Assembly: GCF_000020025.1 (NCBI RefSeq)
Contig: NC_010628.1
Location: 7,740,001 to 7,772,000, forward strand
DNA length: 32,000 bases
Reading direction: 5' to 3'
DNA from: Nostoc punctiforme PCC 73102
Lineage (GTDB): Bacteria > Cyanobacteriota > Cyanobacteriia > Cyanobacteriales > Nostocaceae
Of the stretch, positions 111 to 31,303 are shown piece after piece. The notes under the pieces are model-generated. The model was not told the DNA's origin and made no database searches. It saw only the letters and a list, made by a program, of their open reading frames with translations. The translations under genes were made by a program, and so were the position numbers. Positions within the stretch are counted from its first letter, which is position 1, and every line of letters starts with the position of its first letter.

Positions 111-869
111 CTAATCCAACATTTCTAGGTCAATTCCTAAAGCATTGAGTTGTTCAGCAGAGAGAGTACGCAATTTCTCTACAATTCTCTCCCGCTTTTG
201 TCGCTCAACTTCAGCCCGTTCCTCACCCGTTAGCAGTAAATTTCCTTGTGCATCCCACCAGCGCAACCAAGGTAATTCTGCATTCTGATAAAATCCTTGC
301 CAGATTCCTAACTCTACACCCATAGGAGCAATTGGGTAGTGTCCCCGTTCATTGGGTTGCATTAGTTCATAAGTATTATCGATTAGGTGGTAAACTTCCA
401 CTTGAGCTTTTGCTACTTCATAAATTCCATAATAAGGCACTCGAATTGCCTGCTCATAAACCCAAAACTTACCAACATTTCCACCTTCACCTTGAGATGG
501 CGGTGTGTTATTTCGTTCTTCTGAACCATCTCCAGAGACAAATTCAATCACAATTAGGGGTGCAACATACTCCTTCCACAGCACATAAGAACGGCGCATT
601 TTACCGTTAAGTGTCGGTGGTACATTGGGTACATAAAACCAGTCTGGTGCTTCAGCCCCTTTTTCAGGAGGATCTGTCAATCGCCAGTAGATACCAGAAT
701 CTTGTCCGATACAATATTGACCGTCAGGATGAAGTTGCTCTAGAACAGGTCTAATTGAATCTGTAATTAAAATGCTTTGCGGATGCTCCTGAAGATTTTC
801 CACAAATGTACCATCTGAGTCTGGTAACTGTGTGTGGTCAGGTAAAGTTAATGCCGATAGGGAAGTCAT
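111..869 (-). CDS. Uma2-family (DUF820) restriction-endonuclease-like protein, apparently intact copy
   Basis: ORF 111..881. The ATG at 869 (MTSLSALTLPD...) is preferred over the upstream TTG. It has the typical cyanobacterial Uma2 layout: LPDSDG near the N-terminus, the PDWFYVPNV and IVIEFVS segments, and a charged C-terminal coil ending in LGIDLE. Confidence 0.8.
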   Translation of the reverse strand: MTSLSALTLPDHTQLPDSDGTFVENLQEHPQSILITDSIRPVLEQLHPDGQYCIGQDSGIYWRLTDPPEKGAEAPDWFYVPNVPPTLNGKMRRSYVLWKEYVAPLIVIEFVSGDGSEERNNTPPSQGEGGNVGKFWVYEQAIRVPYYGIYEVAKAQVEVYHLIDNTYELMQPNERGHYPIAPMGVELGIWQGFYQNAELPWLRWWDAQGNLLLTGEERAEVERQKRERIVEKLRTLSAEQLNALGIDLEMLD

Positions 870-1019
870 GGGCACAACCAAGATTATATTTGTATTTTAT
901 TTATTATCCTAATAAATCTAACAAACTCTGTTGTGGTAGACGACTTTATGCTTGTAAATTTTGCACTTATTCGGTGTAAGTATATAGCGACAGTTTGGAT
1001 TTATTGCACCAATTTAAAA

Positions 1020-1715
1020 TTAATAGATGACAAGAGAAGATTTAATCATATTGAGTAATGGCTGTATAAATATATCCACTATTGGCTTTGCGAAAGCAAG
1101 TAAAACTCCAATAGTAATCGTCAATACTAAAGTCTGTTTAATAGAATAATTCTCTACTTTTTTCTCCAGATCATCCAAACGTTTTACCAAAGAAGGAAGA
1201 GAAGCAACTGAATCAGGACTATTCATTAAATCAGTGGGAATTAAATCATAACCTAGCTTCTTTCGTGGCTTATCATCATCTTTATCTAAATCTGCATACC
1301 ATATAGAAAAAACTTTCTCACCTCTTCCTATATGAAGGTGAAGAGGCCCAGCATTATAAACAGCAAAAATTAGTTTACCGTTATAGCCTGGATCGACATG
1401 AAGACCTGAAACATTAATTAGCCCCTTTGACTTAAATTTAAATTTAATCGAAATGAATGCAAGTGCATTATCAGGAACTTTGACTGTTTCAGAAGTTATC
1501 AAAAATGCAAACTGTCCTGGAGGGATAGGAACAGTTTCTTTATCACTAAGAATAATTTTTTTCCGTTCTTTGAGAGGTGTATCAGGAAGGGCTGAAATAT
1601 AAACTTCTTCTCCTAAGCACAATTCGTATGATGCAGACTGAATTTGATCCTCATTAAATGGTTCAATTAAACTGGGAAGACGAGAACTTAAAGTTTGTGA
1701 TGACCAAAAACTCAT
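1020..1715 (-). CDS. dCTP deaminase / dUTPase-fold (Dcd-like) protein with a C-terminal transmembrane helix
   Basis: 231 aa with an ATG start. The N-terminus (SSQTL...IEPF...QIQSASYELCLGEEVY) and the core (GLHVDPGYNGKLIFAVYNAGPLHLHIGRGEKVFSIWY) align by eye with the Dcd motifs (IDPGWSG..LEFYNSG..L..G..I). The C-terminus contains a hydrophobic stretch, LVLTITIGVLLAFAKPIVDIFIQPLL. It is the last gene of a tightly spaced co-directional four-gene cluster. Confidence 0.6.
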   Translation of the reverse strand: MSFWSSQTLSSRLPSLIEPFNEDQIQSASYELCLGEEVYISALPDTPLKERKKIILSDKETVPIPPGQFAFLITSETVKVPDNALAFISIKFKFKSKGLINVSGLHVDPGYNGKLIFAVYNAGPLHLHIGRGEKVFSIWYADLDKDDDKPRKKLGYDLIPTDLMNSPDSVASLPSLVKRLDDLEKKVENYSIKQTLVLTITIGVLLAFAKPIVDIFIQPLLNMIKSSLVIY

Positions 1716-1741
1716 TTGTTTTCCTGCAAGATATCGTTAAG

Positions 1742-2677
1742 TTAATGTTTTATCTCTACGGAGGCTGAACACAGGCTAGACTTTTTCAAATAGGTTATCA
1801 AGCGTGCATCAAGGTCAAGAACTACCCTTCCTCCCCGATTTTTCTCTACCTGTCGCCAGACATCATAGCCCATCAGAATCGCTTTCTCCCAATCGCCCAA
1901 CGAACATTGAGAAACTTCTAAATGGCATGTCATATTTTTGATAGTCTTCAATATTTGGTAATCTAATGTTGAAACTCTTTCTAAGAAACCGTGATTTTTG
2001 GCATAGCTAAATATAAGTGCTGATATACCTTCTTCAATGGCTATTGCACGTCCACCGTCTTCAACCTCGTCAATACTAGAATTACTTTTGCGCTTACGTT
2101 TAAGCATACTACGAGTGACCGCAGACCAACCTAAAACTGCGGCGTAGGAAAAATGGAAAACATCATGAAAGCGGTAGCCATCACTTGTATAGGAATTATC
2201 CGTGAGATCATTTCCAACTTGTTTTTTGTTGATAAATGCCTTCATTTTGATTGAGTTATCTTTGCTTATCTCCGTAATTTCTACTTCAAATTGTCGTGGT
2301 AAACTTTCATTTTCAGGAAAGTCATTGTCGAATATGTAGGTTGTACCTTTATCCTCTATCTGTGCTGAATCTCTCCATCCCCAACGGTCACGGCACTTTC
2401 TCAGATTATCTTCCGCAATTTCTTCCAAATTAAGGTTAAACTTGCTTGCCAAGTTGGAAATATACCAAAGCATATCTCCCAATTCTTCCGCGATGCCTTC
2501 TTTAAATAGTTTGTGTGCATCACCGTCGCGTAAATGTTTTTTATACTCAGTCATCAATGAGCCAACTTCACCCACTAAACCTAGTAGCGGTATCATTAAT
2601 TCAGTACCTTCGACAGCAGGAATTTGGTCTGTCTTCAGTGCTTGTGTTTGATACTCAGAAAAATTCATAATAGACAT
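1742..2677 (-). CDS. MazG-like nucleoside triphosphate pyrophosphohydrolase with an additional ~190-aa C-terminal domain of unknown function
   Basis: ORF 1742..2683, with ATG codons at 2677 and 2668. The N-terminal ~100 aa carry MazG-type motifs (GLVGEVGSLMTEYKK, EELGDMLWYISNLA, NL.K...RW). The remainder (GYRFHDVFHFSYAAVLGWS..., IEEGISALIFSYAK...) matches no family I can name with certainty. Confidence 0.7.
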   Translation of the reverse strand: MSIMNFSEYQTQALKTDQIPAVEGTELMIPLLGLVGEVGSLMTEYKKHLRDGDAHKLFKEGIAEELGDMLWYISNLASKFNLNLEEIAEDNLRKCRDRWGWRDSAQIEDKGTTYIFDNDFPENESLPRQFEVEITEISKDNSIKMKAFINKKQVGNDLTDNSYTSDGYRFHDVFHFSYAAVLGWSAVTRSMLKRKRKSNSSIDEVEDGGRAIAIEEGISALIFSYAKNHGFLERVSTLDYQILKTIKNMTCHLEVSQCSLGDWEKAILMGYDVWRQVEKNRGGRVVLDLDARLITYLKKSSLCSASVEIKH

Positions 2678-2776
2678 ATCCAATTTTAAAATTGTTGATT
2701 ATAGTGATTCTCTGAAGGATAAAATATAAACTTGACGATGAATAAAAAGTATCGCCATTAGAAAATTAAACTATAT

Positions 2777-3274
2777 TTATAGAGAATTACTAGGAAAAAT
2801 AATTGGTTGTGTACTAACTGAAAGACGTAACGGATGGTGTGGGTATCCATACTTTGTTAGAACTAGGCAGTAAAGAGGTTGTTTATCAGAAATTAGACTT
2901 AACACTTCTTTTTCACGGTTCTGAATTCTGGGATATTTCCCCGCACCCCATGCCAAAATAATTAAGGCAGCGCGTTTTGTTGCTACTTGAATATAGCAGT
3001 TGTTTTTTGGCCCCACAGGGTCATCTACTTGGCAAAGTTCACGGGGGTTTGTAGCACAATAAGCAAATAGATTAACTACTTCAAGAGAACCATATTTCCA
3101 AGACTTAGCAAAGTTAATACATCTAGTGAGAGTGTGATCATTTTTCTTATCATCGGCGATACTTGGGTTAAGCATCACAAAAGTAACTTGAGGTAAACTT
3201 ATATCCCATTTACGGCGCAGTAAGTAGCGATACTTTCTAGTGATGTCGAACTTAGCATATCCTTTTATGTCCAT
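2777..3274 (-). CDS. DUF1643 domain protein
   Basis: 165 aa with an ATG start. The pattern FVMLNPSIADDKKNDHTLTRCINFAKSWKYGSLEVVNLFAY..T.P.EL...DPVGPKN...ILAWG matches my recollection of the DUF1643 consensus (MLNPS.AD...DPT.RRC..FA...GYG...V.NLFA.R.T.P..L...DP.GP.N...AWG). Confidence 0.7.
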   Translation of the reverse strand: MDIKGYAKFDITRKYRYLLRRKWDISLPQVTFVMLNPSIADDKKNDHTLTRCINFAKSWKYGSLEVVNLFAYCATNPRELCQVDDPVGPKNNCYIQVATKRAALIILAWGAGKYPRIQNREKEVLSLISDKQPLYCLVLTKYGYPHHPLRLSVSTQPIIFPSNSL

Positions 3275-3319
3275 GTATTTTACTCTGAATTACTATGGAT
3301 TTATAAAGAGCGGCTTATC

Positions 3320-4609
3320 TTAAAACAGACACAACTGTTTATGCTTTTCAATTTCTATATTTTGTAAAACTTTTGATTTTTTTCTCTGAGTCTCTTGTTC
3401 AGATTTTTTATATTGTTTTGATACATTATTCGGAATTTCAGATGTTGTTTTTACCTGAGAATCTAGTTCCAAAGATAATTGCTGACAATTACTATTATTT
3501 AATATTTGCAAATTAGTAATCTCTAATGTTGGCAATCTCTGTGCTAAACTTTCTTGAACTTTATCATTAATGCACCATTTGGGTGGATAAAAATAATCAA
3601 TTGCGTGAGGCGTTGAAGTAAATTTTGATTTGATTTTTTTGCGATTACTTTTCAATTCGGGAAATGCTGCTCGGCAGTATTTATCCGTTTCACAAAAAAG
3701 ATTTTGACAGTCTATAGCCTGTAGTGGACGACCCCAGAGTGATTGAAAATTTAACCCCAAACGCTGAAACTCTTTTTCTTGGTTTTCAGTCATCCAATGA
3801 ATTATATCAGTATATGTTTTACCATCTGTATCGACAAAACACTTGCTGATACCACGTTCGGCTCCTGGTCCTGCTATAGTAAAACTGTTTTCCTCAAAGT
3901 TGATAATTTCACTATAGTTAATATCTGTCGCTAATTGGTAAGCCATAAACTTACCTAGCAATGGATATTCTTGAATAATCTTAAAAACGTCTTCAAAATT
4001 TTTGGCTTTGACTATGTGATTGACCACTCTATCTTGGGCAACCATTTTATCAAGTAATGCCAAATGGTTCTGGTGTTTTTTATCATAACCAAACTCTTTG
4101 CTGGCACAAGACATATATGCACTGGTATAAATGACATATCCAAGATTCATAGCCTCTTGTAATATATCTGAATATACATTTGAGTCGAAATTAGACAGTG
4201 TTATATAGTCTCCTATTTTGTTTTCTAAGTATTCCCATGTTTCTATTTTATTAAAAATTTTAAATAGTAGAATCCGTAAAATTACCTCTTCTTCATTCTG
4301 GCTCCTATTCTGATCGTAAATCACCTTTTTGATCAGATATTGTGAAACGCGATCGCTTGCTCGATATGCATTACAAAATTTATAAGTATTAATGATCGGG
4401 TCACTCGTCCACGGTGGTGGTACGTTGTTAATTTTGTTGAAAAATACTTCCTGCCGCATAGCAGCAAATCGCCAATAGGTATCAAAAATTTCTTGTCTTA
4501 CTTGCATACACTGTTCTCCTGGTTTATCGTTATCAGTTTCAAACCTGTTTTTTATCCATGAGGCAAGATTATGCGACAACTGCCGCATAATCATCGTACC
4601 CGATCGCAT
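3320..4609 (-). CDS. aGPT-pyrophosphorylase-like / putative DNA-base hypermodification family protein (alpha-glutamyl/putrescinyl-thymine pyrophosphorylase-like)
   Basis: ORF 3320..4618. The first codon is TTG, with ATG codons at 4609, 4594 and 4588. The N-terminal signature IFDTYWRFAAMRQEVFFNKINNVPPPWTSDPIINTYKFCNAYRASDRVSQYL resembles the W..R..I...R.....PWT.D.IL..Y.F.N.YR..DR.T signature I associate with this family. It is the first gene of the four-gene cluster. The family assignment is from memory and needs an HMM check. Confidence 0.5.
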   Translation of the reverse strand: MRSGTMIMRQLSHNLASWIKNRFETDNDKPGEQCMQVRQEIFDTYWRFAAMRQEVFFNKINNVPPPWTSDPIINTYKFCNAYRASDRVSQYLIKKVIYDQNRSQNEEEVILRILLFKIFNKIETWEYLENKIGDYITLSNFDSNVYSDILQEAMNLGYVIYTSAYMSCASKEFGYDKKHQNHLALLDKMVAQDRVVNHIVKAKNFEDVFKIIQEYPLLGKFMAYQLATDINYSEIINFEENSFTIAGPGAERGISKCFVDTDGKTYTDIIHWMTENQEKEFQRLGLNFQSLWGRPLQAIDCQNLFCETDKYCRAAFPELKSNRKKIKSKFTSTPHAIDYFYPPKWCINDKVQESLAQRLPTLEITNLQILNNSNCQQLSLELDSQVKTTSEIPNNVSKQYKKSEQETQRKKSKVLQNIEIEKHKQLCLF

Positions 4610-4680
4610 TTCTAGCAAAACATCCTTAAAGCCGAGCGCAGCAACTATTCTTAACTTTTATCTACTGAATAATATGATTT

Positions 4681-5361
4681 TCAGGAAACACTAGGATCGT
4701 CAGCAGTTTTGATCTCTTTCAATATTCGTTCGACTTGGTTAACTTTTTCACCTCTATTCTGTGCTTTGAAAATATTTAAGGCTTTTTCTAGAGAAGACAG
4801 CGCCTCATCTTTTTTATTTGTTTGCCACAATACCAATGCAAAATTAGTCAGGGCCTCGCCATAGTTAGGATTGATTTCTAGAGCTTTTTTATATTCAGTC
4901 ATGGCTTCATCCCAGCGACTTTGGCTAGCATAAACCATACCGATCGCATTATAAGCTAAAGCGTATTTTGACTGGAGACGAATGGCTTCTTGATAAGCGC
5001 TAATTGCTTCTTCTGGTTTCTTTTGCCGAAAAAGCACATTTCCCAGTTGAAAGTGTCCAAAGGCATCGTCTGGAAATTTTTTAATTAACTTGCGTAAATT
5101 TTCCTCTGCACCTGTTAAGTCTCCCTGATTAAATAAAGCATTGGCTTGTTGCAGCATCTGCGATCGCTCTGATGGCCCTGTATCTGAAAACTGTGCTAGT
5201 TTTTGTGGTTGTCTCTGTGCATCCTGTTCTGGCGGATGCAAAGAAACTTTTCCAGAAACCGCTAACGCTAATGGTGATAAACTAATTACAGTTAGAATAG
5301 TCAGCATCATGCAGCTAAAAGGTTGAACAAATGCTGATTTGGGTTTGCTCTTCAGCTTCAT
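4681..5361 (-). CDS. Secreted or membrane-anchored tetratricopeptide (TPR) repeat protein
   Basis: ORF 4681..5445. The likely start is MKLKSKPK... at 5361, followed by a signal or TM segment (CMMLTILTVISLSPLALA). Several TPR units follow (AISAYQEAIRLQSKYALAYNAIGMVY, AMTEYKKALEINPNYGEAL). Confidence 0.75.
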   Translation of the reverse strand: MKLKSKPKSAFVQPFSCMMLTILTVISLSPLALAVSGKVSLHPPEQDAQRQPQKLAQFSDTGPSERSQMLQQANALFNQGDLTGAEENLRKLIKKFPDDAFGHFQLGNVLFRQKKPEEAISAYQEAIRLQSKYALAYNAIGMVYASQSRWDEAMTEYKKALEINPNYGEALTNFALVLWQTNKKDEALSSLEKALNIFKAQNRGEKVNQVERILKEIKTADDPSVS

Positions 5362-5478
5362 CGCCCTCAATGCCTCAATAATGTTCTTATGTCCATAATA
5401 AAATGTGGGTGCGTTACGTGAAATACACCACAAGTAGGAACGCACATCTGTGCATCCCTACAAGGTCAATTGAATTAT

Positions 5479-7452
5479 TTACGTACCTTCCCGCAATTTA
5501 TCCAACACGCTTCTATCTTCTAACGTCGAAGTATCACCAGATACCTCTTGCCCAGCAGCTAGATTCCGCAATAAGCGCCGCATAATCTTACCCGATCGCG
5601 TTTTGGGCAAAGCATCAGTAAAGCGAATTTCTCCTGGACGTGCGATCGCACCAATTTCTTTGACGACGTGCTGCTTGAGTTCTTTACTCAGTTCCTCACT
5701 TCCCTGATAAGTGCCTTCTAAAGTCACAAAAGCAACTACTTCTTCACCTTTGAGTTCATCCGGCTTACCTACTACCGCCGCTTCTGCAACGGCTGGATGC
5801 GAAACTAAAGCTGATTCTACTTCCATTGTACCAAGGCGATGTCCTGATACATTCAGTACGTCATCCACACGACCCATTACCCAAAAGTAGCCGTCTTCAT
5901 CTTGTCTAGCGCCATCACCAGCAAAGTAAGTATATTTACCATCTTGGGGCGGAATGTGTTCCCAATAAGTGCGGCGGAAGCGTTCTGGATCGCCGTAAAC
6001 TGTCCGCATCATTCCTGGCCACGGATGGCGCACCGCCAGATAACCGCCTTCGTTATTGGGTACGGTGTTTCCTTCTAAATCCACGACATCTGCAATAATT
6101 CCTGGGAAGGGAAGAGTTGCAGAACCTGGTTTAGTAGGGATTGCTCCTGGTAGCGGTGTAATCATGATACCGCCAGTTTCCGTTTGCCACCAAGTATCAA
6201 CAATTGGACAGCGATCGCCACCAATTACTTTCTGATACCACATCCAAGCTTCTGGGTTAATGGGTTCGCCGACGGTTCCCAGCAAACGCAACGAAGACAA
6301 GTTTCGCGCATTAGGATGTTGTTCACCCATCTTAATAAATGCCCGAATTGCCGTAGGTGCAGTATAAAAAATATTAACGCCGTATTTTTCAATTACATCC
6401 CAGAAACAGCCAGGATTAGAAGCACGGGGCGCACCTTCATACATCACAGTCGTTGCACCGTTGGAAAGGGGACCGTAGACAATGTAACTGTGTCCCGTAA
6501 TCCAGCCTACATCTGCGGTACACCAATATACATCTGTGTCTTGCAGGTCGAATATCCACTTAGTGGTGATGTGGGTATACAGATTATAACCAGCAGTTGT
6601 ATGCACTACGCCCTTCGGTTTGCCGGTGCTACCAGAAGTGTAGAGGACAAATAGCATATCTTCACTATCCATCGGTTCGGCGGGACAATCTGCTGATGCA
6701 CTTTTTTGTAAATCATGCCACCAATGATCGCGTCCCCCCAATTGCATATAAGTTTCTTGTCCGGTGCGCTTAACAACTAGGACATTTTCGACGCTGGGAA
6801 CAGCACCATCAGCTAAGGCTTTATCTACTTGTTCTTTGAGAGGAACGATCGCATCTTTGCGCCAACCACCATCAGCCGTGATTACTAATTTAGCTGTGGC
6901 ATCAATTAAGCGATCGCGCAAAGCTTCGGCACTAAAACCACCAAATACTACGCCGTGTGGTGCGCCGATTCTGGCACAGGCTAACATTGCGATCGCAGCT
7001 TCAGGAATCATCGGCATATAGATTCCAACGCGATCGCCTTTTTGTACACCCAGTTGCTTCAATACATTGGCGAATTGGCAGACTTCCCGGTGTAGTTGGG
7101 CGTAAGTTAGGGTACGCGAATCACCTGGCTCTCCTTCCCAAATCAAGGCTGCTTTATTTTTGCGCCAAGTAGTGAGGTGTCTGTCAAGGCAGTTGTAAGA
7201 AATATTCATCTTACCGCCAACGAACCACTTCGCAAAAGGCGGTTGCCAATCTAGCACCGTGTCCCATTTTTGGAACCATTCTAATTCTGTTCCAGCCAAA
7301 TCTGCCCAAAATTGCTCTGGATCGGCTTTGGCTTTTTCATAGAGACGCTTGTAGTCGTCCAAGCTTTTAATGTGGGCGTTCTGCGAGAATTCACTAGGAG
7401 GATGGAAAAGGCGGTTCTCTTGGAGGATTGATTCGATATTTGGTTCTGACAT
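5479..7452 (-). CDS. acs: Acetyl-CoA synthetase (acetate--CoA ligase)
   Basis: 657 aa, full length. It has canonical Acs motifs ([53 protein letters not shown]). Confidence 0.97.
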
Positions 7453-7685: not shown

Positions 7686-8330
7686 ATGACGCTCACGGTC
7701 GAAGCTAGCAGCTTATCTCTCAATGATGTTCATCGTCTTCTCAAGCTAGAAGAACTTTCAGTTGGTTCATTTGCAGATTTTTTAAATTTAGAACCATTGA
7801 CAGAGTTTGAACAGGAGGATTTATTGCGAATTAGAAACGACTTCCGTCGTTATCTCAGGCTTGGTAAAATTTCTGAGGGATTAGTTAAATTTTTAACGAT
7901 TGCACCACTAATGCGGTTAGCAGGGTTTTACGATGTGCCGATTCGGTTGACAATGGAAGATAGCATTGCGATCGCTGTCGAAGATGAAGACAGAAGAATT
8001 ACCGGACGGATGGATATTTTAGCAATCAACAGTTTTCAAAGTAATATTGCACCGCCATTTTGGGTTGTAGTAATTGAAACGAAAAACAGTGCGATTGAAG
8101 TGGGGGAAGGTTTACCTCAATTACTGACTTATGCTTTTAAGAGTTTAGAGCAACAACCATCTGTTTGGGGACTGGTAACTAATGGACTGCGTTATCAATT
8201 TGTTCATCTAAGACATGACGAGCAGTCAAATTATCAGTTAATGCCATTATTAAGCTTAAACGAATCTCCAGATGCAATAGAGTTATTGCAAGTTTTCAAA
8301 GGCATCTGCAAGTTAGCTAATTTTCAGTAA
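7686..8330 (+). CDS. PD-(D/E)xK restriction-endonuclease-like protein (HSDR_N-like fold)
   Basis: 214 aa. A putative nuclease core is GRMDILAIN...FWVVVIETKNS...QLLTYA (D...E.K...Q pattern). It belongs to a family commonly expanded in cyanobacteria, and a Uma2 gene lies immediately downstream. Confidence 0.5.
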   Translation: MTLTVEASSLSLNDVHRLLKLEELSVGSFADFLNLEPLTEFEQEDLLRIRNDFRRYLRLGKISEGLVKFLTIAPLMRLAGFYDVPIRLTMEDSIAIAVEDEDRRITGRMDILAINSFQSNIAPPFWVVVIETKNSAIEVGEGLPQLLTYAFKSLEQQPSVWGLVTNGLRYQFVHLRHDEQSNYQLMPLLSLNESPDAIELLQVFKGICKLANFQ

Positions 8331-8352: not shown

Positions 8353-9104
8353 ATGTCTGAACCTGCTACTTTAGAATTCATCTCTAATGGTATTTCAGAA
8401 GACGAAGTTATTTTTCCTCCTGGTGATATACTTAGTGACGAGCTACCCTTGAAAAGCGATTTACACCGTGACCAAATCGATTTGCTAATTCGCATACTAG
8501 AATTATGGTGGCGGGAGCGGCAATATTTCTATGCTTCTGGCAATTTGACGATTTACTACAGTCCTAACCAGAAAACATCAGAATATTTTCGTGGCCACAG
8601 ACTTTTTTGTAGTTTTGGGAACTCAGAAAAAAGACCGTAAGAGTTGGGTAGTTTGGCAAGAAAACGGCAAATATCCAAACGTGATTGTGGAAATTTTGTC
8701 AAGTTCAAAGACAGCAGTTGATAAAGGGTTAAAAAAACAAGTTTATCAAGATACCTTCCGTACACGAGATTATTTCTGGTTCGACCATGTAACAATGGAA
8801 CTTCAGGGATTCCATTTAGTTGATGGCAAGTATCAAGAAATCCAAGTAACTACTGATGGACGTTTGTGGAGTCAGCAGTTAGAACTTTATTTGGGAGTTT
8901 ATGAAGGTAAATTAAGATTCTTCACTACTGAAAATCAATTAATATTATCATCAGAAGAGTTAGCTGAACAAGAACGTTTACGTGCCCAACAAGCAGAAAA
9001 ACGTGCCCAAGAGTTCAGAAGAACGCGCCCAACAAGCAGAGCAAGAACTTGCTCGATTGCGGGAGGTATTACGCACACAGGGCATTGAGTTAGAGAATAT
9101 TTGA
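8353..9104 (+). pseudogene. Uma2-family endonuclease gene with two frameshifts
   Basis: The Uma2-like sequence is spread over three frames. Frame 1 covers 8353..~8595 (...NLTIYYSPNQKTSEYFRG). Frame 2 runs to ~9013 (DFFVVLGTQKKDRKSWVVWQENGKYPNVIVEILS...). A third frame encodes the expected tail, SEERAQQAEQELARLREVLRTQGIELENI, with its stop at 9102..9104. Confidence 0.8.
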
Positions 9105-10925: not shown

Positions 10926-10948
10926 AGTGAGCCATCATGAACCAAAAT

Positions 10949-11032
10949 AATCAAGGCAACGCCAAGGGATGGCAAAATCAGGTTGAGGGTGGAACAGTTT
11001 ATCAAGGTGATATTAGTATCTACAATTCCCCT
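10949..11032 (+). repeat. Copy 2 of the duplicated 28-codon motif (N-terminus of the NB-ARC/TPR protein)
   Basis: NQGNAKGWQNQVEGGTVYQGDISIYNSP. By hand alignment, 21 of 28 residues are identical to copy 1. Confidence 0.9.
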
Positions 11033-11342
11033 ACTCAGCAGTTACACTCATCTACTCCAAATAATATTCCCTCTCGCGGTGTCGCCAACTTTGTCGGGCG
11101 GGATGAGAAACTTGCAGAGGTGCATAAAAAGTTGCTGCAAAATGACAGCGCGGCAATTTTGGCTTTGGCTGCTATGGGCGGAATGGGTAAAACTGAACTG
11201 GCGACACAATACGCACAGCGCTACAAAGACAATTATCCTGGTGGGCTTTGCTGGTTAGATGCCAGAAAACCAGATTTAGCAGCAGAGATTGTAGAGTTTG
11301 CTAAGTTTTACATGAAACTAGTAGTCTGCCAAGCTAACTTTG

Positions 11343-12508
11343 CTATGTTAAATTTGGATATAAACGCTCCATTTTTCGGCGAGCATCTTTGGTTTGAAAA
11401 CCCCAATAAACACTAGCTTTTTGCTGATTACGTTTTTTCTCCCAAGCGGCAATCTCAGAAGTTAATGTTTCTGCATTAGGAATACGCCGTTCTAAACATT
11501 GGCGAGATAAAACAGATAATTCGATTTCTACCTGATTCAGCCCTTCGGGTTCGCCAGTTGCTTCAAGTCGGGGAACCCGCCCAACGCACTGGCTCACCAA
11601 GAAGCGTGTTTAGGAGTATAGTGAAACTCTAACTTTTGAATAATTCGACGTGCTTCTTCTGGTGGAAAAACTTCATATAATGCATTGGGTGTATGAATAT
11701 TCAAGTTATCAACTACTAAACGAATAACATCGGCATCTCGGTAGGAAACATCTACTAAATTTTTCATTTGTTTAGCAAAATCGGCTTTAGTTCGACGTTC
11801 TGTAACTTCGATATGCCGCCATCCAGCCAAGGGTTGAAAACATGCGAATAAATTTACTGTCCCGTACGTTATACTCAAAATCATAACGTTCAGGTTGCTC
11901 TGGCTGTGGTGGCAAAGGAAGTCTTACTTCTTCTACTAATTGGTATGGACGTTCATCAAAGCAGACTACAGGGCGTTTAGGATCATAAGGCTCATTGTAT
12001 AAATCCAGCACATCTTCCATTCGGAAAACATATTCTGCGTTAACTTCAGGAATACACCATTGTTCTTTCAACCAAGGCTTAATTTCATTTTTTTTAAAGT
12101 TTGACGTACTGTTTCATCTGAGATTGAATCTATGATACCAACGTTCACTAAATGATCTGCTAATAATTGCATTGTCCAACGCACTCTTCCTTCTGGCGGA
12201 TTAGAACAAGCTGTTGCAATCAAAAATGCTTCTTGCTTTTCATCTAATTTTTTATGTTTTGGTGGATGAACTTCATCCTTTAAAGCAAAATCTAACCCTC
12301 CAATGACAAATTTTTCTCGTATTCGTTGCACTGTTGCAACATGCGCTCTAACTATGCTAGCGATCGCTTGATCCGTTTCTCCTTCGGAAGCCATCAAAAG
12401 AATGTTTGCACGGCTTATGGTTCTTGCCTTATGCTTACCTTTCTTAATTATCGATTGCAGTTGGGAAACTTCATCTTCATTCAAGTCAACAATGTACTTT
12501 TTTGCCAT
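11343..12508 (-). pseudogene. IS630-family transposase, fragmented into four reading-frame segments
   Basis: The segments are 12068..12508 (HTH N-terminus), 11787..12071 ([12 protein letters not shown]...), 11594..11884 ([17 protein letters not shown]...DNLNIHT...FHYTPKHASW) and 11343..11600 (LNQVEIELSVLSRQCL...). Junction 1 lies at an A8 run. Junction 2 is a simple indel. Junction 3 is a 56-bp insertion. Confidence 0.85.
11541..11596. repeat. 56-bp hairpin-containing mini-insertion inside the IS630 transposase gene
   Basis: It separates the conserved ...HASW and LNQVEIE... residues, which are normally contiguous in IS630 transposases. It contains the inverted pair CGGGTTC/GAACCCG. Its length is not a multiple of 3. 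Confidence 0.6.
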
Positions 12509-13569
12509 GTTACACCCCGTTTTTGGCTATTTTACCAATTAGAGGTTTTACTTAGCAAAGTTACCTTGGTACACTACTAGAAGTACCGCAAACTTTATTG
12601 ACTTCCCAGGAACAAGCAAAATGGTGCTGGCATAATTGGCAACCACAAGCAGGACTAGTTTTAGTAGTATTGGACAATGTTGACGATCTTACTAACTGGA
12701 AAAATTGTCGGCAAATACTACCAACAAATAACCGCTTCTGTGTATTAATTACAAGTCGGTTGCGAAATCTCGGTTTAAATGTCACAGAGATAAGCTTGGA
12801 TGAACTGTCACCAGAAAAAGCTTTGAATTTGTTGACAGCTTTGTTGGGCGAAAAAGATAGGCGAGTGCAACGAGAACCAGAAACGGCAGTAAATTTATGT
12901 AAATGGCTGGGATATCTGCCTTTAGGTTTGCAATTAGTGGGCGCGTATTTGGCAGAAGATCCAAATTTATCTTTGGCAAAGATTTTACAGCAATTACCAA
13001 CTCAGCAAAAGTCTCAATTAGAAGCTGTATTTGAATTAAGCTGGCAACAACTCGATTTTATGACACAGTGTGTCGGTGAATTGTTGAGTTTATTTGCCCC
13101 AGATATCATTCCTTGGCAATTGGTTGAATCTGTCAGTCAGCAGCTAAATTGGGCGAAGGCAGATGTTGATGAGGCGAGAAAGCAACTTTATAAGCGCCAT
13201 TTAATTCAAAGCGTAGCAGAAGGAGAAAGTTGCTATAAAATTCATCCTTTAATTAGGGAGTTTTTGCAGGGTAAATTGGCAGGGTTAAACACAGGCGATG
13301 ACCTCAAAAAAGCCTTTGCCGCAGCATTAGTAAAAATTGCTCAGAAAATACCTGAATCTCTCACTCTTGAGGATATTAAGTCAGTGCAACTGGCAATTCC
13401 CCATTTAACTGAAGTGGCACAAAATCTGATTGATGCTGTGGAGGATGAAAATTTAACTTGGGTTTTCACTGGCTTGGGCAAATTCTATCAAGGTCAAGGT
13501 TTGTATACCCTAGCAGCACCTTGGTATGAGCAAGGATTATCAACGGTACAAACCCGTTTGGGAGAAGAA

Positions 13570-14073
13570 CATAGCCATGTTGCCACCAACCTTAGCTGGC
13601 TGGCAAGTCTCTACGATTTTCAAGGACGCTACGACCAAGCCGAACCCCTGTTTCTGCAAGCTTTAGAACTTTCTAAACGCCTGCTGGGAGATGCACATCC
13701 CGATGTTGCCAACAGCCTGAATTGTTTGGCAAATATCTACTATTATCAAGGACGCTACGACCAAGCCGAACCCCTGTATCTGCAAGCTTTAGAACTGAGA
13801 AAACGCCTGCTCGGAGATGCACATCCCTTAGTTGCCAACAGCCTGAATTGTTTGGCAAATCTCTACTATTCTCAAAGACGCTACGACCAAGCCGAACCCC
13901 TGTCTCTGCAAGCTTTAGAACTTTCTAAACGCCTGCTCGGAGATGCACATCCCGATGTTGCCAACAGCCTGAATTGTTTGGCAAATCTCTACTATTCTCA
14001 AGGACGCTACGAACGAGCCGAACCCCTGTATCTGCAAGCTTTAAAGATTTATAAACAGGTGTTTGGGGTAAAT
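13570..14073 (+). repeat. Four tandem 126-bp (42-codon) TPR units with very high nucleotide identity inside the NLR-like gene
   Basis: Unit boundaries lie at about 13570, 13696, 13822 and 13948. Long stretches (caaggacgctacgaccaagccgaacccctg...gcaagctttagaact...aaacgcctgct.ggagatgcacatccc...gttgccaacagcctgaattgtttggcaaat) repeat almost verbatim. Confidence 0.9.
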
Positions 14074-14239
14074 CATCCCAATACGGTTACTGTTCGGCAA
14101 AATCTAGAAAATGCTCGGGCTAATAAATAGTGTTAGCCGGACAGTTAAAAATAATGCTAATAATTCCTTGTGGAAGAAGCTTTTGGGGTTATTTGATTGA
14201 AGCGAAAGTTGTAATTATAGCAAGGAACTGGGGACACTT

Positions 14240-29880: not shown

Positions 29881-31303
29881 GTTTTAATCCCTAATAGGGA
29901 TTTTGATGAATTGCAATCACCCACTACAACAGAAAAGAGATTATGCCCTAGCAGTCGTTTCAATCCCTAATAGGGATTTTGATGAATTGCAATTTTTGGG
30001 ATGCTAAACAAAAAGAATGGATTCGCGATGATAGTTTCAATCCCTAATAGGGATTTTGATGAATTGCAATTCTCTATCTACAAAATCAATAGCTCCAGTG
30101 ACAAGTTTCAATCCCTAATAGGGATTTTGATGAATTGCAATTTTTGGGATGCTAAACAAAAAGAATGGATTCGCGATGATAGTTTCAATCCCTAATAGGG
30201 ATTTTGATGAATTGCAATTCTCTATCTACAAAATCAATAGCTCCAGTGACAAGTTTCAATCCCTAATAGGGATTTTGATGAATTGCAATATGGGTAACTA
30301 ATCATTCAAAAGCCTACCCACTCGTTTCAATCCCTAATAGGGATTTTGATGAATTGCAATTAGATGATACGGAATCACCAACCGATTGGCTTGAGTTTCA
30401 ATCCCTAATAGGGATTTTGATGAATTGCAATGTTTGAGCGACTCCAAACTGATGTTCGGATGAAGTTTCAATCCCTAATAGGGATTTTGATGAATTGCAA
30501 TGTGGCGAATTGGAGAGCGATCGCTGGGATTGCCGTTTCAATCCCTAATAGGGATTTTGATGAATTGCAATTGGCTTTTTCAATTGCAGAGGCAACATCT
30601 TCTTCTGTTTCAATCCCTAATAGGGATTTTGATGAATTGCAATTTATATTTCGCTTCCTGCGCTTGCGGAAAGTGTCTGTGTTTCAATCCCTAATAGGGA
30701 TTTTGATGAATTGCAATAGTTTTCTCTCTCGTCTTGAGCGCGATTCTAAGCGTTTCAATCCCTAATAGGGATTTTGATGAATTGCAATGAGGATAATGTT
30801 TTCTAGTGCTGCCCTTCCCAATGTTTCAATCCCTAATAGGGATTTTGATGAATTGCAATTTTTTCAGGAAGGCGAACAGTCTTTACAGGAAGAGTTTCAA
30901 TCCCTAATAGGGATTTTGATGAATTGCAATGTGATTTTTGCTATTGTTAGTGCATCTATTATTTTTGTTTCAATCCCTAATAGGGATTTTGATGAATTGC
31001 AATTTTACTTTTGACCCTCCCTCCTTCTGTCCAGCGAGTTTCAATCCCTAATAGGGATTTTGATGAATTGCAATACCGGTACTTTTTTGCGTTTCACTCC
31101 TGCGGTTTTGTTTCAATCCCTAATAGGGATTTTGATGAATTGCAATGTATGCCAAATTTCGGCAAGTTGCGCCGCGAAAGCACATGCGGTTTTGTTTCAA
31201 TCCCTAATAGGGATTTTGATGAATTGCAATATGGGATTAGCTATGGGGCAACTAGCCAAAGCGCTCGTTTCAATCCCTAATAGGGATTTTGATGAATTGC
31301 AAT
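29881..31303 (-). CRISPR. CRISPR array with 20 repeats of 37 nt and 19 spacers (33-47 nt)
   Basis: The plus-strand repeat is GTTTCAATCCCTAATAGGGATTTTGATGAATTGCAAT. Repeats start at 29881, 29957, 30034, 30105, 30182, 30253, 30324, 30395, 30465, 30535, 30607, 30681, 30752, 30823, 30894, 30967, 31038, 31110, 31194 and 31267. The minus-strand form ends in ...CCCTATTAGGGATTGAAAC (ATTGAAAC 8-nt handle). The only variant repeat (GTTTTAAT...) is at 29881, which implies minus-strand transcription with the leader beyond 31303. Confidence 0.97.

Follow-up and report, generated by a model that had tools for sequence, protein, structure and literature searches.

What do four adjacent genes do together when one encodes a homologue of a phage thymidine-hypermodification protein (A), one a DUF1643 protein (B), one a MazG pyrophosphohydrolase fused to a MazG_C domain (C) and one a protein of the Dcd/dUTPase fold (D)? 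The question is raised by a locus of Nostoc punctiforme PCC 73102 (NC_010628.1). All coordinates refer to a stretch of 32,000 nucleotides from this genome (the window), in which the four minus-strand open reading frames (ORFs) fill positions 1020-4609 in the order A-B-C-D. It is nearly certain that this operon belongs to a family of cassettes built on the pair of A and C. For the function of the family, the reading favoured here, to which we give about an even chance, is that the operon is a Nostocales-type reduction of a cassette that is widespread and moves horizontally, and that counters phages by acting on deoxynucleotides of the thymidine type and on 5-substituted DNA pyrimidines.

The operon and the cassette family built on A and C

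A first-pass annotation, made from the sequence and its ORFs, had described a four-gene operon with gaps of 45, 93 and 26 bp, and this layout was borne out exactly. Its four family calls were also confirmed by Pfam (PF18723, PF07799, PF18722/PF03819 and PF22769), as detailed in the following list.

3320-4609, minus strand: gene A, HMUDK_hel (formerly aGPT-Pplase clade 1); PF18723, 2.1e-108, 362 bits (cut-off 25), profile positions 2-280 of 281; PHROG 2396
3689-3694, minus strand: codons of the invariant Cys-Glu pair of A, C272/E273 (395-aa numbering), in the motif FCExDK, from the alignment
3275-3319: A-B intergenic gap, 45 bp, from the ORF layout
2777-3274, minus strand: gene B, DUF1643, 165 aa; PF07799, 2.8e-48, 163.8 bits (cut-off 22.5)
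2684-2776: B-C intergenic gap, 93 bp (108 bp with the C start at 2668), from the ORF layout
1742-2683, minus strand: gene C, MazG and MazG_C fusion; PF18722, 3.9e-85, 284.6 bits (cut-off 29.7); PF03819, 1.4e-4, 22.5 bits (cut-off 22), borderline
2369-2668, minus strand: MazG domain of C (all-alpha NTP pyrophosphohydrolase), with invariant acidic residues
1784-2341, minus strand: MazG_C domain of C, PF18722
1716-1741: C-D intergenic gap, 26 bp, from the ORF layout
1020-1715, minus strand: gene D, Dcd/dUTPase fold with C-terminal coiled coil and hydrophobic helix, 231 aa; PF22769, 2.4e-17, 63.9 bits (cut-off 27)
1065-1133, minus strand: predicted membrane helix of D, about aa 195-217, TLVLTITIGVLLAFAKPIVDIFI, a hydrophobic stretch whose position is kept in other phyla
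4349-4356: sole HIP1 (highly iterated palindrome) site (GCGATCGC) within the operon, from a motif scan

Several starts were considered for two of the genes. In gene A, a TTG at 4618 opens the ORF, the ATG at 4609 gives 429 aa, and the callers of public assemblies with an identical locus place the start at 4507 (395 aa). In gene C, a TTG at 2683 gives 313 aa, and the likely start, again that of the public callers, is at 2668 (308 aa).

A scan of one genome per species with protein C returned at least 582 relatives, and the best 80 loci were mapped. A and C lie side by side on the same strand in 79 of these 80, which come from Cyanobacteria, Proteobacteria, Acidobacteria and other phyla. The proposed co-occurrence of all four families therefore held for the pair A+C in those 79 loci, for D in three architectures and for DUF1643 in two, but the complete A-B-C-D set varies.

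Type 1 comprises about 57 loci from Proteobacteria, Acidobacteria, Eremiobacterota and many non-heterocystous cyanobacteria. Its order is a small protein, an XRE-type helix-turn-helix (HTH) protein, an M78 ImmA/IrrE peptidase, a protein X, A, C and an AcpS-family phosphopantetheinyl transferase, and a D homologue follows in 18 of the loci. Protein X is a distant member of the thymidylate-synthase superfamily (TIGR03283, 1.5e-8) which also gives a marginal match to the CMP hydroxymethylase MilA, with the Cys of its FPCLQ motif in register; on a conjugative Nostoc plasmid it is named thymidylate synthase by the annotation pipeline PGAP. The small protein (about 100 aa; positions 2413-2718 of locus L044; alignment A9) resembles a carrier protein in that its (F/L)DS motif contains a Ser that never varies. 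The AcpS-family phosphopantetheinyl transferase of the same locus lies at 6891-7316.

Type 2 consists of the window and 21 further loci, of which 19 are named Nostocales and two are named to family or phylum only. Here the order is A-DUF1643-C, with D in six loci, and its surroundings share no other conserved gene. In about ten Nostoc genomes the block is found between acs/TPR (a tetratricopeptide repeat gene) and Uma2, and A-B-C(-D) blocks occur in at least eight other contexts in Nostocales. The first-pass annotation had pointed out that a pyrimidine hydroxymethylase is missing; it is indeed absent here, but this holds only for the Nostocales variant, since most relatives carry the thymidylate-synthase-like gene. 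A third variant was found on the Acuticoccus plasmid p1_MNP-M23 (L091, 5689-11365), where a MazG-MazG_C protein of 385 aa is paired with a family-4-like uracil-DNA glycosylase (UDG). Opposite this pair lie genes for a thymidylate-synthase-like protein, a C1 peptidase, an ImmA protein, an HTH protein, a carrier-like protein and a D homologue (42% identity to D, 8e-60).

The C family was further collected as 554 representatives at 50% identity (E<=1e-30). Among them, three proteins of 657-763 aa (P0369, P0431 and P0438) carry HMUDK_hel, MazG and MazG_C in one polypeptide, and a fourth of 498 aa (P0488) has MazG and MazG_C fused to a separate thymidylate-kinase domain. The fusions argue for a joint action of A and C, with thymidine-type nucleotides as the currency. 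The variable partners of the A+C core are thymidylate-synthase-like proteins, thymidylate or deoxynucleoside monophosphate (dNMP) kinases, the dUTPase-like protein, and a UDG or DUF1643, and all of them point to T/U-type deoxynucleotides. We lean towards the view that T- or U-type nucleotides or bases are the substrates of the cassette.

Mobility is evident outside the syntenic Nostoc set. In Burkholderia gladioli a type-1 cassette follows the TrbL, VirB8, CagX and TrbI genes of an integrative and conjugative element (ICE), and members of the C family were found on 34 PLSDB plasmids, 18 of them conjugative. Among 111 flanking ORFs from non-syntenic loci, PADLOC matches included AbiEi (7), mad3 (6), AriA/GajA/Old-type ATPases (4-5) and HEC-01A (4), counts that are qualitative as they were taken without a genome-wide baseline. 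Integrases and resolvases are present among the same ORFs (Pfam). Based on this context, namely ICE and plasmid cargo, flanking defence genes and the validated relative DS-4 described below, a role of the cassette in conflict or defence is judged rather probable.

The four proteins

The family of protein A is now named HMUDK_hel; its earlier name, aGPT-Pplase clade 1, survives in the Joint Genome Institute label of one A homologue. A shares 30% identity with the HMUDK_hel protein of DS-4 in an alignment of 283 aa that takes in the FCExDK motif (E 4e-34), and 24% with gp55 of phage M6. The motifs NxxRxxDR, GxGDF (helix-hairpin-helix-like), PGPG and FCExDK are invariant between A, M6 gp55, the homologues of Nodularia and Bacillus phages, and the DS-4 protein. 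The Cys-Glu pair was found to be invariant in 14 bacterial, phage and DS-4 homologues, some A homologues having in addition basic, AT-hook-like tails. In the sister clade 2, Pplase2 turns 5-hydroxymethyl-deoxyuridine (5-hmdU) out of the helix, and catalysis depends on an invariant Cys, the nucleophile that attacks the flipped 5-phosphomethyl-dU (PMC8989533, PMC13458397).

In M6 and in Bacillus phage Nachito, the homologues of A adjoin a 5-hmdU DNA kinase, with a thymidylate synthase close by. The SP10 kinase is entered as 'gp186N' in Table 3 of PMC5889632, a label that we take to mean the N-terminal portion of some longer protein. Nodularia phage vB_NspS-kac65v151 (L085, 6998-7957) encodes a clade-1 Pplase homologue 28% identical to A, whose gene stands alone between tape-measure and ribonucleotide reductase genes, with no kinase or thymidylate synthase annotated nearby. 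Since Nodularia phages encode such a homologue, phages with Pplase1-type chemistry probably infect Nostocales.

Protein C is 52-91% identical to its homologues in 80 genomes, and between phyla the identity is 52-73% with more than 80 invariant positions. In its MazG domain the acidic, metal-binding residues E34, E61, E62 and D65 are invariant in 56 sequences; profile matches in the PDB are weak, the nearest solved structures being YpjD and dCTP pyrophosphatase 1. The MazG_C domain is rich in invariant His, Asp and Arg (DGYRFHDVFH, EVEDGGRA), and no match to it was found in 50,697 phage records. It is labelled a nucleotide kinase in PMC13092281; no Walker A motif (GxxxxGK[ST]) was seen in eight aligned C sequences.

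Protein B gave a confident alpha/beta model with AlphaFold2 (predicted local distance difference test, pLDDT, 86). In our own reading, without statistical support, its motifs MLNPSxAD, VVNLFAY and HPRHPLY resemble UDG motifs. The idea that B may be a UDG stays alive because in the third variant a true UDG stands immediately behind MazG-MazG_C, in a comparable position. DUF1643 genes are also found beside three type-1 cassettes. At the syntenic loci L001, L002, L004-L007, L009, L016 and L024, B is 58-96% identical to the window protein, compared with 82-90% for A and 87-93% for C, which suggests that B has undergone allele replacement or diversifying selection.

Protein D had been likened to dCTP deaminases that act in defence, a comparison that did not survive inspection. 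In E. coli Dcd, where the roles of the catalytic residues are well established, the catalytic Glu is E138; the corresponding residue is Ala in D (IFAVYN as against VLEFYN) and in all D homologues, and the positions of Ser111 and Arg115 differ as well. The E. coli chain with Ala at this site outscores the wild-type chain against D, and the best solved relatives, archaeal proteins of 155 aa, also have no Glu. Against the dCTP deaminase equivalog TIGR02274, D scores 75.4 bits, under the cut-off of 92.8. Because the catalytic Glu is Ala and the equivalog score is below its cut-off, deamination of dCTP was ruled out, although some annotations carry the label 'dCTP deaminase'; the known defence deaminase, moreover, has another fold. 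Judged by its residues, D is a dUTPase-like binder or hydrolase.

Homologues of D are present in 25 of the 80 loci besides the window. The D genes of type-1 cassettes, those of Proteobacteria among them, encode products 40-48% identical to D with the same coiled coil and hydrophobic helix. Most syntenic Nostoc loci, conversely, have no D. At L002 (about 6960-7060, compared with window 850-1800) the first approximately 42 nt of D directly follow C and are joined to the 3' flank of D, so that the loss there is a clean internal deletion. D is dispensable.

Composition and neighbourhood of the window locus

The operon is flanked by the following genes.

111-881: Uma2 gene
4681-5445: TPR protein gene
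5479-7452: acetyl-CoA synthetase gene acs

The claim that the operon is AT-richer than its neighbours was upheld by a windowed check: its GC content is 0.353 against 0.425 at 5446-32000, and 1020-4609 is the 3.6-kb stretch of lowest GC in the window. At third codon positions the GC content is 0.21-0.35 in genes A-D and 0.36-0.46 in four other sampled genes of the window. A further low-GC stretch near 30 kb is due to a CRISPR array of 20 repeats of 37 nt (29881-31303, minus strand; Rfam RF01318, CRISPR-DR5). The operon had also been called poor in HIP1. GCGATCGC occurs at 31 sites in the window, compared with 0.24 expected from shuffles, and the counts of one site in the operon and five in acs (5642, 6211, 6910, 6989 and 7030) stood. 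However, the density elsewhere predicts 3.9 sites per 3.6 kb, so that Poisson P(<=1) is about 0.10, and 32 of the 285 sliding windows of 3.6 kb hold no more than one site as well. Both the compositional contrast and the HIP1 deficit are real, but the latter is weak as a stand-alone argument and not decisive; with P at about 0.10 it was dropped as proof of recent transfer. The first pass had argued from it for horizontal acquisition. A recent event was not shown: about ten Nostoc genomes carry the block at one and the same site, and it also occurs in at least eight other contexts.

PHROG families match all four products. The view that this is not a prophage was borne out, and a prophage reading was rejected: many Nostoc genomes keep the locus in synteny between acs and Uma2, and neither structural nor integrase genes of phages were found near the operon. 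By Pfam, no 5-hmdU DNA kinase, clade-2 transferase, hydroxymethylase or phage structural gene is present in the operon or its flanks. By tblastn, none of the type-1 extras (carrier protein, XRE HTH, M78 peptidase, thymidylate-synthase-like protein, phosphopantetheinyl transferase) was detected in the 32-kb window. A promoter and terminator scan of the operon gave signal at chance level, and an Rfam search gave no match inside it. The TPR gene was considered as a component of the system and rejected: it is missing at L011 and L031, where A directly adjoins acs, and at every non-syntenic locus.

The wider neighbourhood is loosely defence-like, with Uma2 genes, a PD-(D/E)xK protein, a split NB-ARC/TPR gene and the CRISPR array 25 kb away. 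The PD-(D/E)xK protein, of 214 aa (7686-8330, plus strand), has a match at 1.7e-8 to the PADLOC model PD_DExK ('CAS associated') and a weak one to HSDR_N_2. A second Uma2-family gene seems to be divided over two overlapping ORFs (8353-8640 and 8591-9088, plus strand), with the Pfam Uma2 match (profile positions 73-165) in the second only, which suggests a frameshift. The NB-ARC/TPR gene, of STAND type, appears in two pieces (10937-11416 and 12598-14130, plus strand): the first ORF holds the N-terminal part of NB-ARC, and the remainder of NB-ARC with the TPR repeats is in an ORF about 1.2 kb downstream. This gene may be disrupted.

Interpretation and comparison with known systems

In the favoured reading, the core of the cassette would consist of two enzymes, the DNA-acting HMUDK_hel/Pplase1 protein A and the MazG-MazG_C protein C. 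The MazG domain of C would hydrolyse a pyrimidine deoxynucleoside triphosphate (dNTP), candidates being dTTP, dUTP and a phage-made 5-hydroxymethyl or otherwise modified dNTP. Protein A would bind DNA and flip a pyrimidine out of it, its Cys-Glu pair performing chemistry at C5/C6, and would be coupled to MazG_C, which may take the place that the 5-hmdU DNA kinase holds beside the phage Pplase1. B could then process the product or the lesion. D would be a dispensable accessory, a membrane-anchored, non-deaminase dUTPase-like trimer that binds or hydrolyses dUTP-like nucleotides. As a whole, the gene set appears to mirror that of hydroxymethyluracil-containing or hypermodifying phages, with hydroxymethylase, kinase, dTTPase/dUTPase and DNA-level enzymes; the enzyme set of SPO1-type phages is part of the basis for this likeness.

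The Nostocales variant, for its part, would act only on substrates from phages with hydroxymethylated or hypermodified pyrimidines and would be harmless to the host. Substrates supplied by the invader are favoured because the forms that carry the thymidylate-synthase-like enzyme also carry the repressor/protease switch and the Nostocales form has neither. That the cassette specifically targets phage-made modified pyrimidines is put forward tentatively and rated as unlikely. A bolder version, which we consider unlikely, is that phage hypermodification chemistry has been turned on phages: a Cys-dependent, base-flipping Pplase1, coupled and in some cases fused to MazG-MazG_C, would with it chemically alter or tag 5-substituted pyrimidines in replicating invader DNA, and the Nostocales form would be constitutive and substrate-gated, firing only on phages with hydroxymethyl or hypermodified pyrimidines. 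Under this version, the larger cassettes might attach a phosphopantetheinylated carrier protein to invader DNA.

A number of results weigh against the anti-phage reading and its chemistry. The anti-phage role of A+C cassettes is a prediction, and no PADLOC v2 model matched any of products A-D at E<=0.01. The conflict role proposed there is plausible from ICE and plasmid cargo and from the flanking defence genes, but the window locus is syntenic in many Nostoc genomes and lies outside any tight defence island. For A, clade-1 Pplase was not required for hypermodification in vitro, and comparison with the clade-2 protein M6 gp51 aligned the Cys residues at a non-significant hhalign E of 0.4; the profile of A found no Pplase2 chain among PDB sequences either. 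With the relation undetected by profile methods, we infer the Cys-Glu analogy to Pplase2 and claim nothing stronger. For C, no relatives of MazG_C were found in the PDB by profile search, and since the AlphaFold2 model (56-sequence alignment) reached a pLDDT of 56 and its Foldseek search returned noise only, no fold is claimed for this domain. For B, the model had no significant structural neighbours in the PDB, the profile matched no solved fold among PDB sequences, and hhalign against two UDGs was not significant. D, finally, is often deleted and hence is not an essential effector.

Four other explanations were weighed. The cassette could place a modified pyrimidine in the DNA of its own host, ICE or plasmid, as an epigenetic mark or for anti-restriction, much as Dpd modifies bacterial DNA. 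The enzymes are homologous to a phage DNA-modification pathway, the type-1 thymidylate-synthase-like enzyme, the invariant-Ser carrier protein and the phosphopantetheinyl transferase have a biosynthetic flavour, the cassette adjoins type IV secretion and replication genes on an ICE and on plasmids, and the Nostoc locus is stably syntenic. However, the window variant has no thymidylate-synthase-like enzyme, P-loop kinase or clade-2 transferase and so could not make a modified base along the known pathway; the cassette has no conserved cognate nuclease, the type-1 XRE/ImmA switch suggests induced rather than constitutive action, and DS-4, with its A homologue, behaves as a defence system. Self-modification is regarded as an unlikely account. 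Pure dNTP depletion leading to abortive infection, in which MazG (with D, where present) destroys dNTPs on infection and A is only a DNA-binding sensor or anchor with no base chemistry, would agree with the invariant metal-binding residues of MazG and the nucleotide-binding dUTPase fold of D, and depletion is an established defence logic, known from anti-phage dCTP deaminase and dGTPase systems. Yet a module that only binds DNA would not be expected to keep a Cys-Glu pair invariant across bacteria and phages, simple depletion does not account for the partners of the relatives (thymidylate-synthase-like, thymidylate-kinase and carrier proteins), and the window variant has no obvious switch to silence a general dNTPase, which makes this explanation quite unlikely.

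A housekeeping role, with MazG and the dUTPase-like protein sanitising dNTPs while A (helix-hairpin-helix-like) and DUF1643 excise damaged or uracil bases from host DNA, is very unlikely. MazG and dUTPase are classic house-cleaning families, the nearest solved MazG relatives (YpjD and dCTP pyrophosphatase 1) fit this picture, and the locus sits between housekeeping genes in Nostoc synteny; set against this are the patchy, mobile distribution over ICEs, plasmids and many contexts, the accessory genes that vary between loci, the deletion of D in some of them, the defence genes in flanks, the composition atypical for the genome, the predicted membrane anchor of D and the repressor/protease switch of relatives. 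That the operon is a functionless relic of hypermodification in a phage or prophage is scarcely credible. All four proteins have PHROG matches and the region is AT-rich and HIP1-poor, but the four ORFs are intact, C keeps its 52-73% identity and more than 80 invariant positions between phyla, the gene order is retained in 21 further type-2 loci, no phage structural or integrase genes lie nearby, and MazG_C is absent from the 50,697 phage records.

If the cassette is a defence system, it would confer immunity via DNA-base chemistry rather than through nucleases or plain dNTP depletion, and the enzyme set by which phages escape restriction would have a bacterial counterpart. With only three or four genes and without a regulator, the Nostocales form is the smallest version in nature and offers the easiest entry for biochemistry. 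Possible returns include new DNA-modifying or DNA-labelling enzymes, and the role of clade-1 aGPT-Pplase in phages could become directly testable.

Among known systems, phage thymidine hypermodification (M6, ViI, SP10 and PhiW-14; PMC5889632, PMC8989533) shares with the window a clade-1 aGPT-Pplase homologue, A, and a dTTPase/dUTPase takes part in the phage pathway. The window differs in having no P-loop 5-hmdU DNA kinase, clade-2 transferase, hydroxymethylase or tailoring enzymes dependent on pyridoxal phosphate or radical S-adenosylmethionine, and MazG_C was not found in phages. Anti-phage dCTP deaminase and dGTPase systems similarly have deoxynucleotide pools as their target. In contrast, the anti-phage dCTP deaminase is annotated with a P-loop kinase and a CDA-clan (APOBEC-type) domain, whereas D is a Dcd/dUTPase beta-barrel without the catalytic Glu and matches no PADLOC model. 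The Dpd cluster puts 7-deazaguanines into bacterial DNA. It provides a precedent for a bacterial island that combines nucleotide-biosynthesis-like enzymes with a DNA-acting transferase, but the base (guanine), the enzymes and the partners differ, and no homology was found; this modification is mentioned in PMC5889632.

The closest parallels come from DefensePredictor (Science 2026, PMC13092281). DS-4 (working name NTTI), which consists of thymidylate synthase, dNMP kinase, HMUDK_hel, TIR and Nmad2, protects E. coli (PMC13092281). It shares with the window the HMUDK_hel protein and, through thymidylate synthase and dNMP kinase, a nucleotide-directed logic; unlike the window, it has a TIR effector and Nmad2, and it has no MazG-MazG_C, DUF1643 or Dcd-like protein. 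The same paper presents predicted systems with MazG, MazG-C, dUTPase, aGPT-Pplase, NMAD and UDG domains, none of them validated according to its authors, who credit an earlier bioinformatic study with a defensive prediction for several of these domains. One of these, highlighted in Fig. 6F/S12C, is a MazG-C/dUTPase/aGPT-Pplase system: it has the three signature domains of A, C and D and is described as involved in nucleotide modification and as located in defence islands in some cases, and the window adds DUF1643 to it. Most relatives of the cassette, on the other hand, carry the HTH/ImmA switch and the thymidylate-synthase-like, carrier-protein and phosphopantetheinyl-transferase genes that the window does without. 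The description of the operon as an undescribed system must accordingly be narrowed, as the kind of system has already been predicted and a relative, DS-4, validated. What is new here is the Nostocales A-DUF1643-C(-D) architecture and the family-wide anatomy of the cassette.

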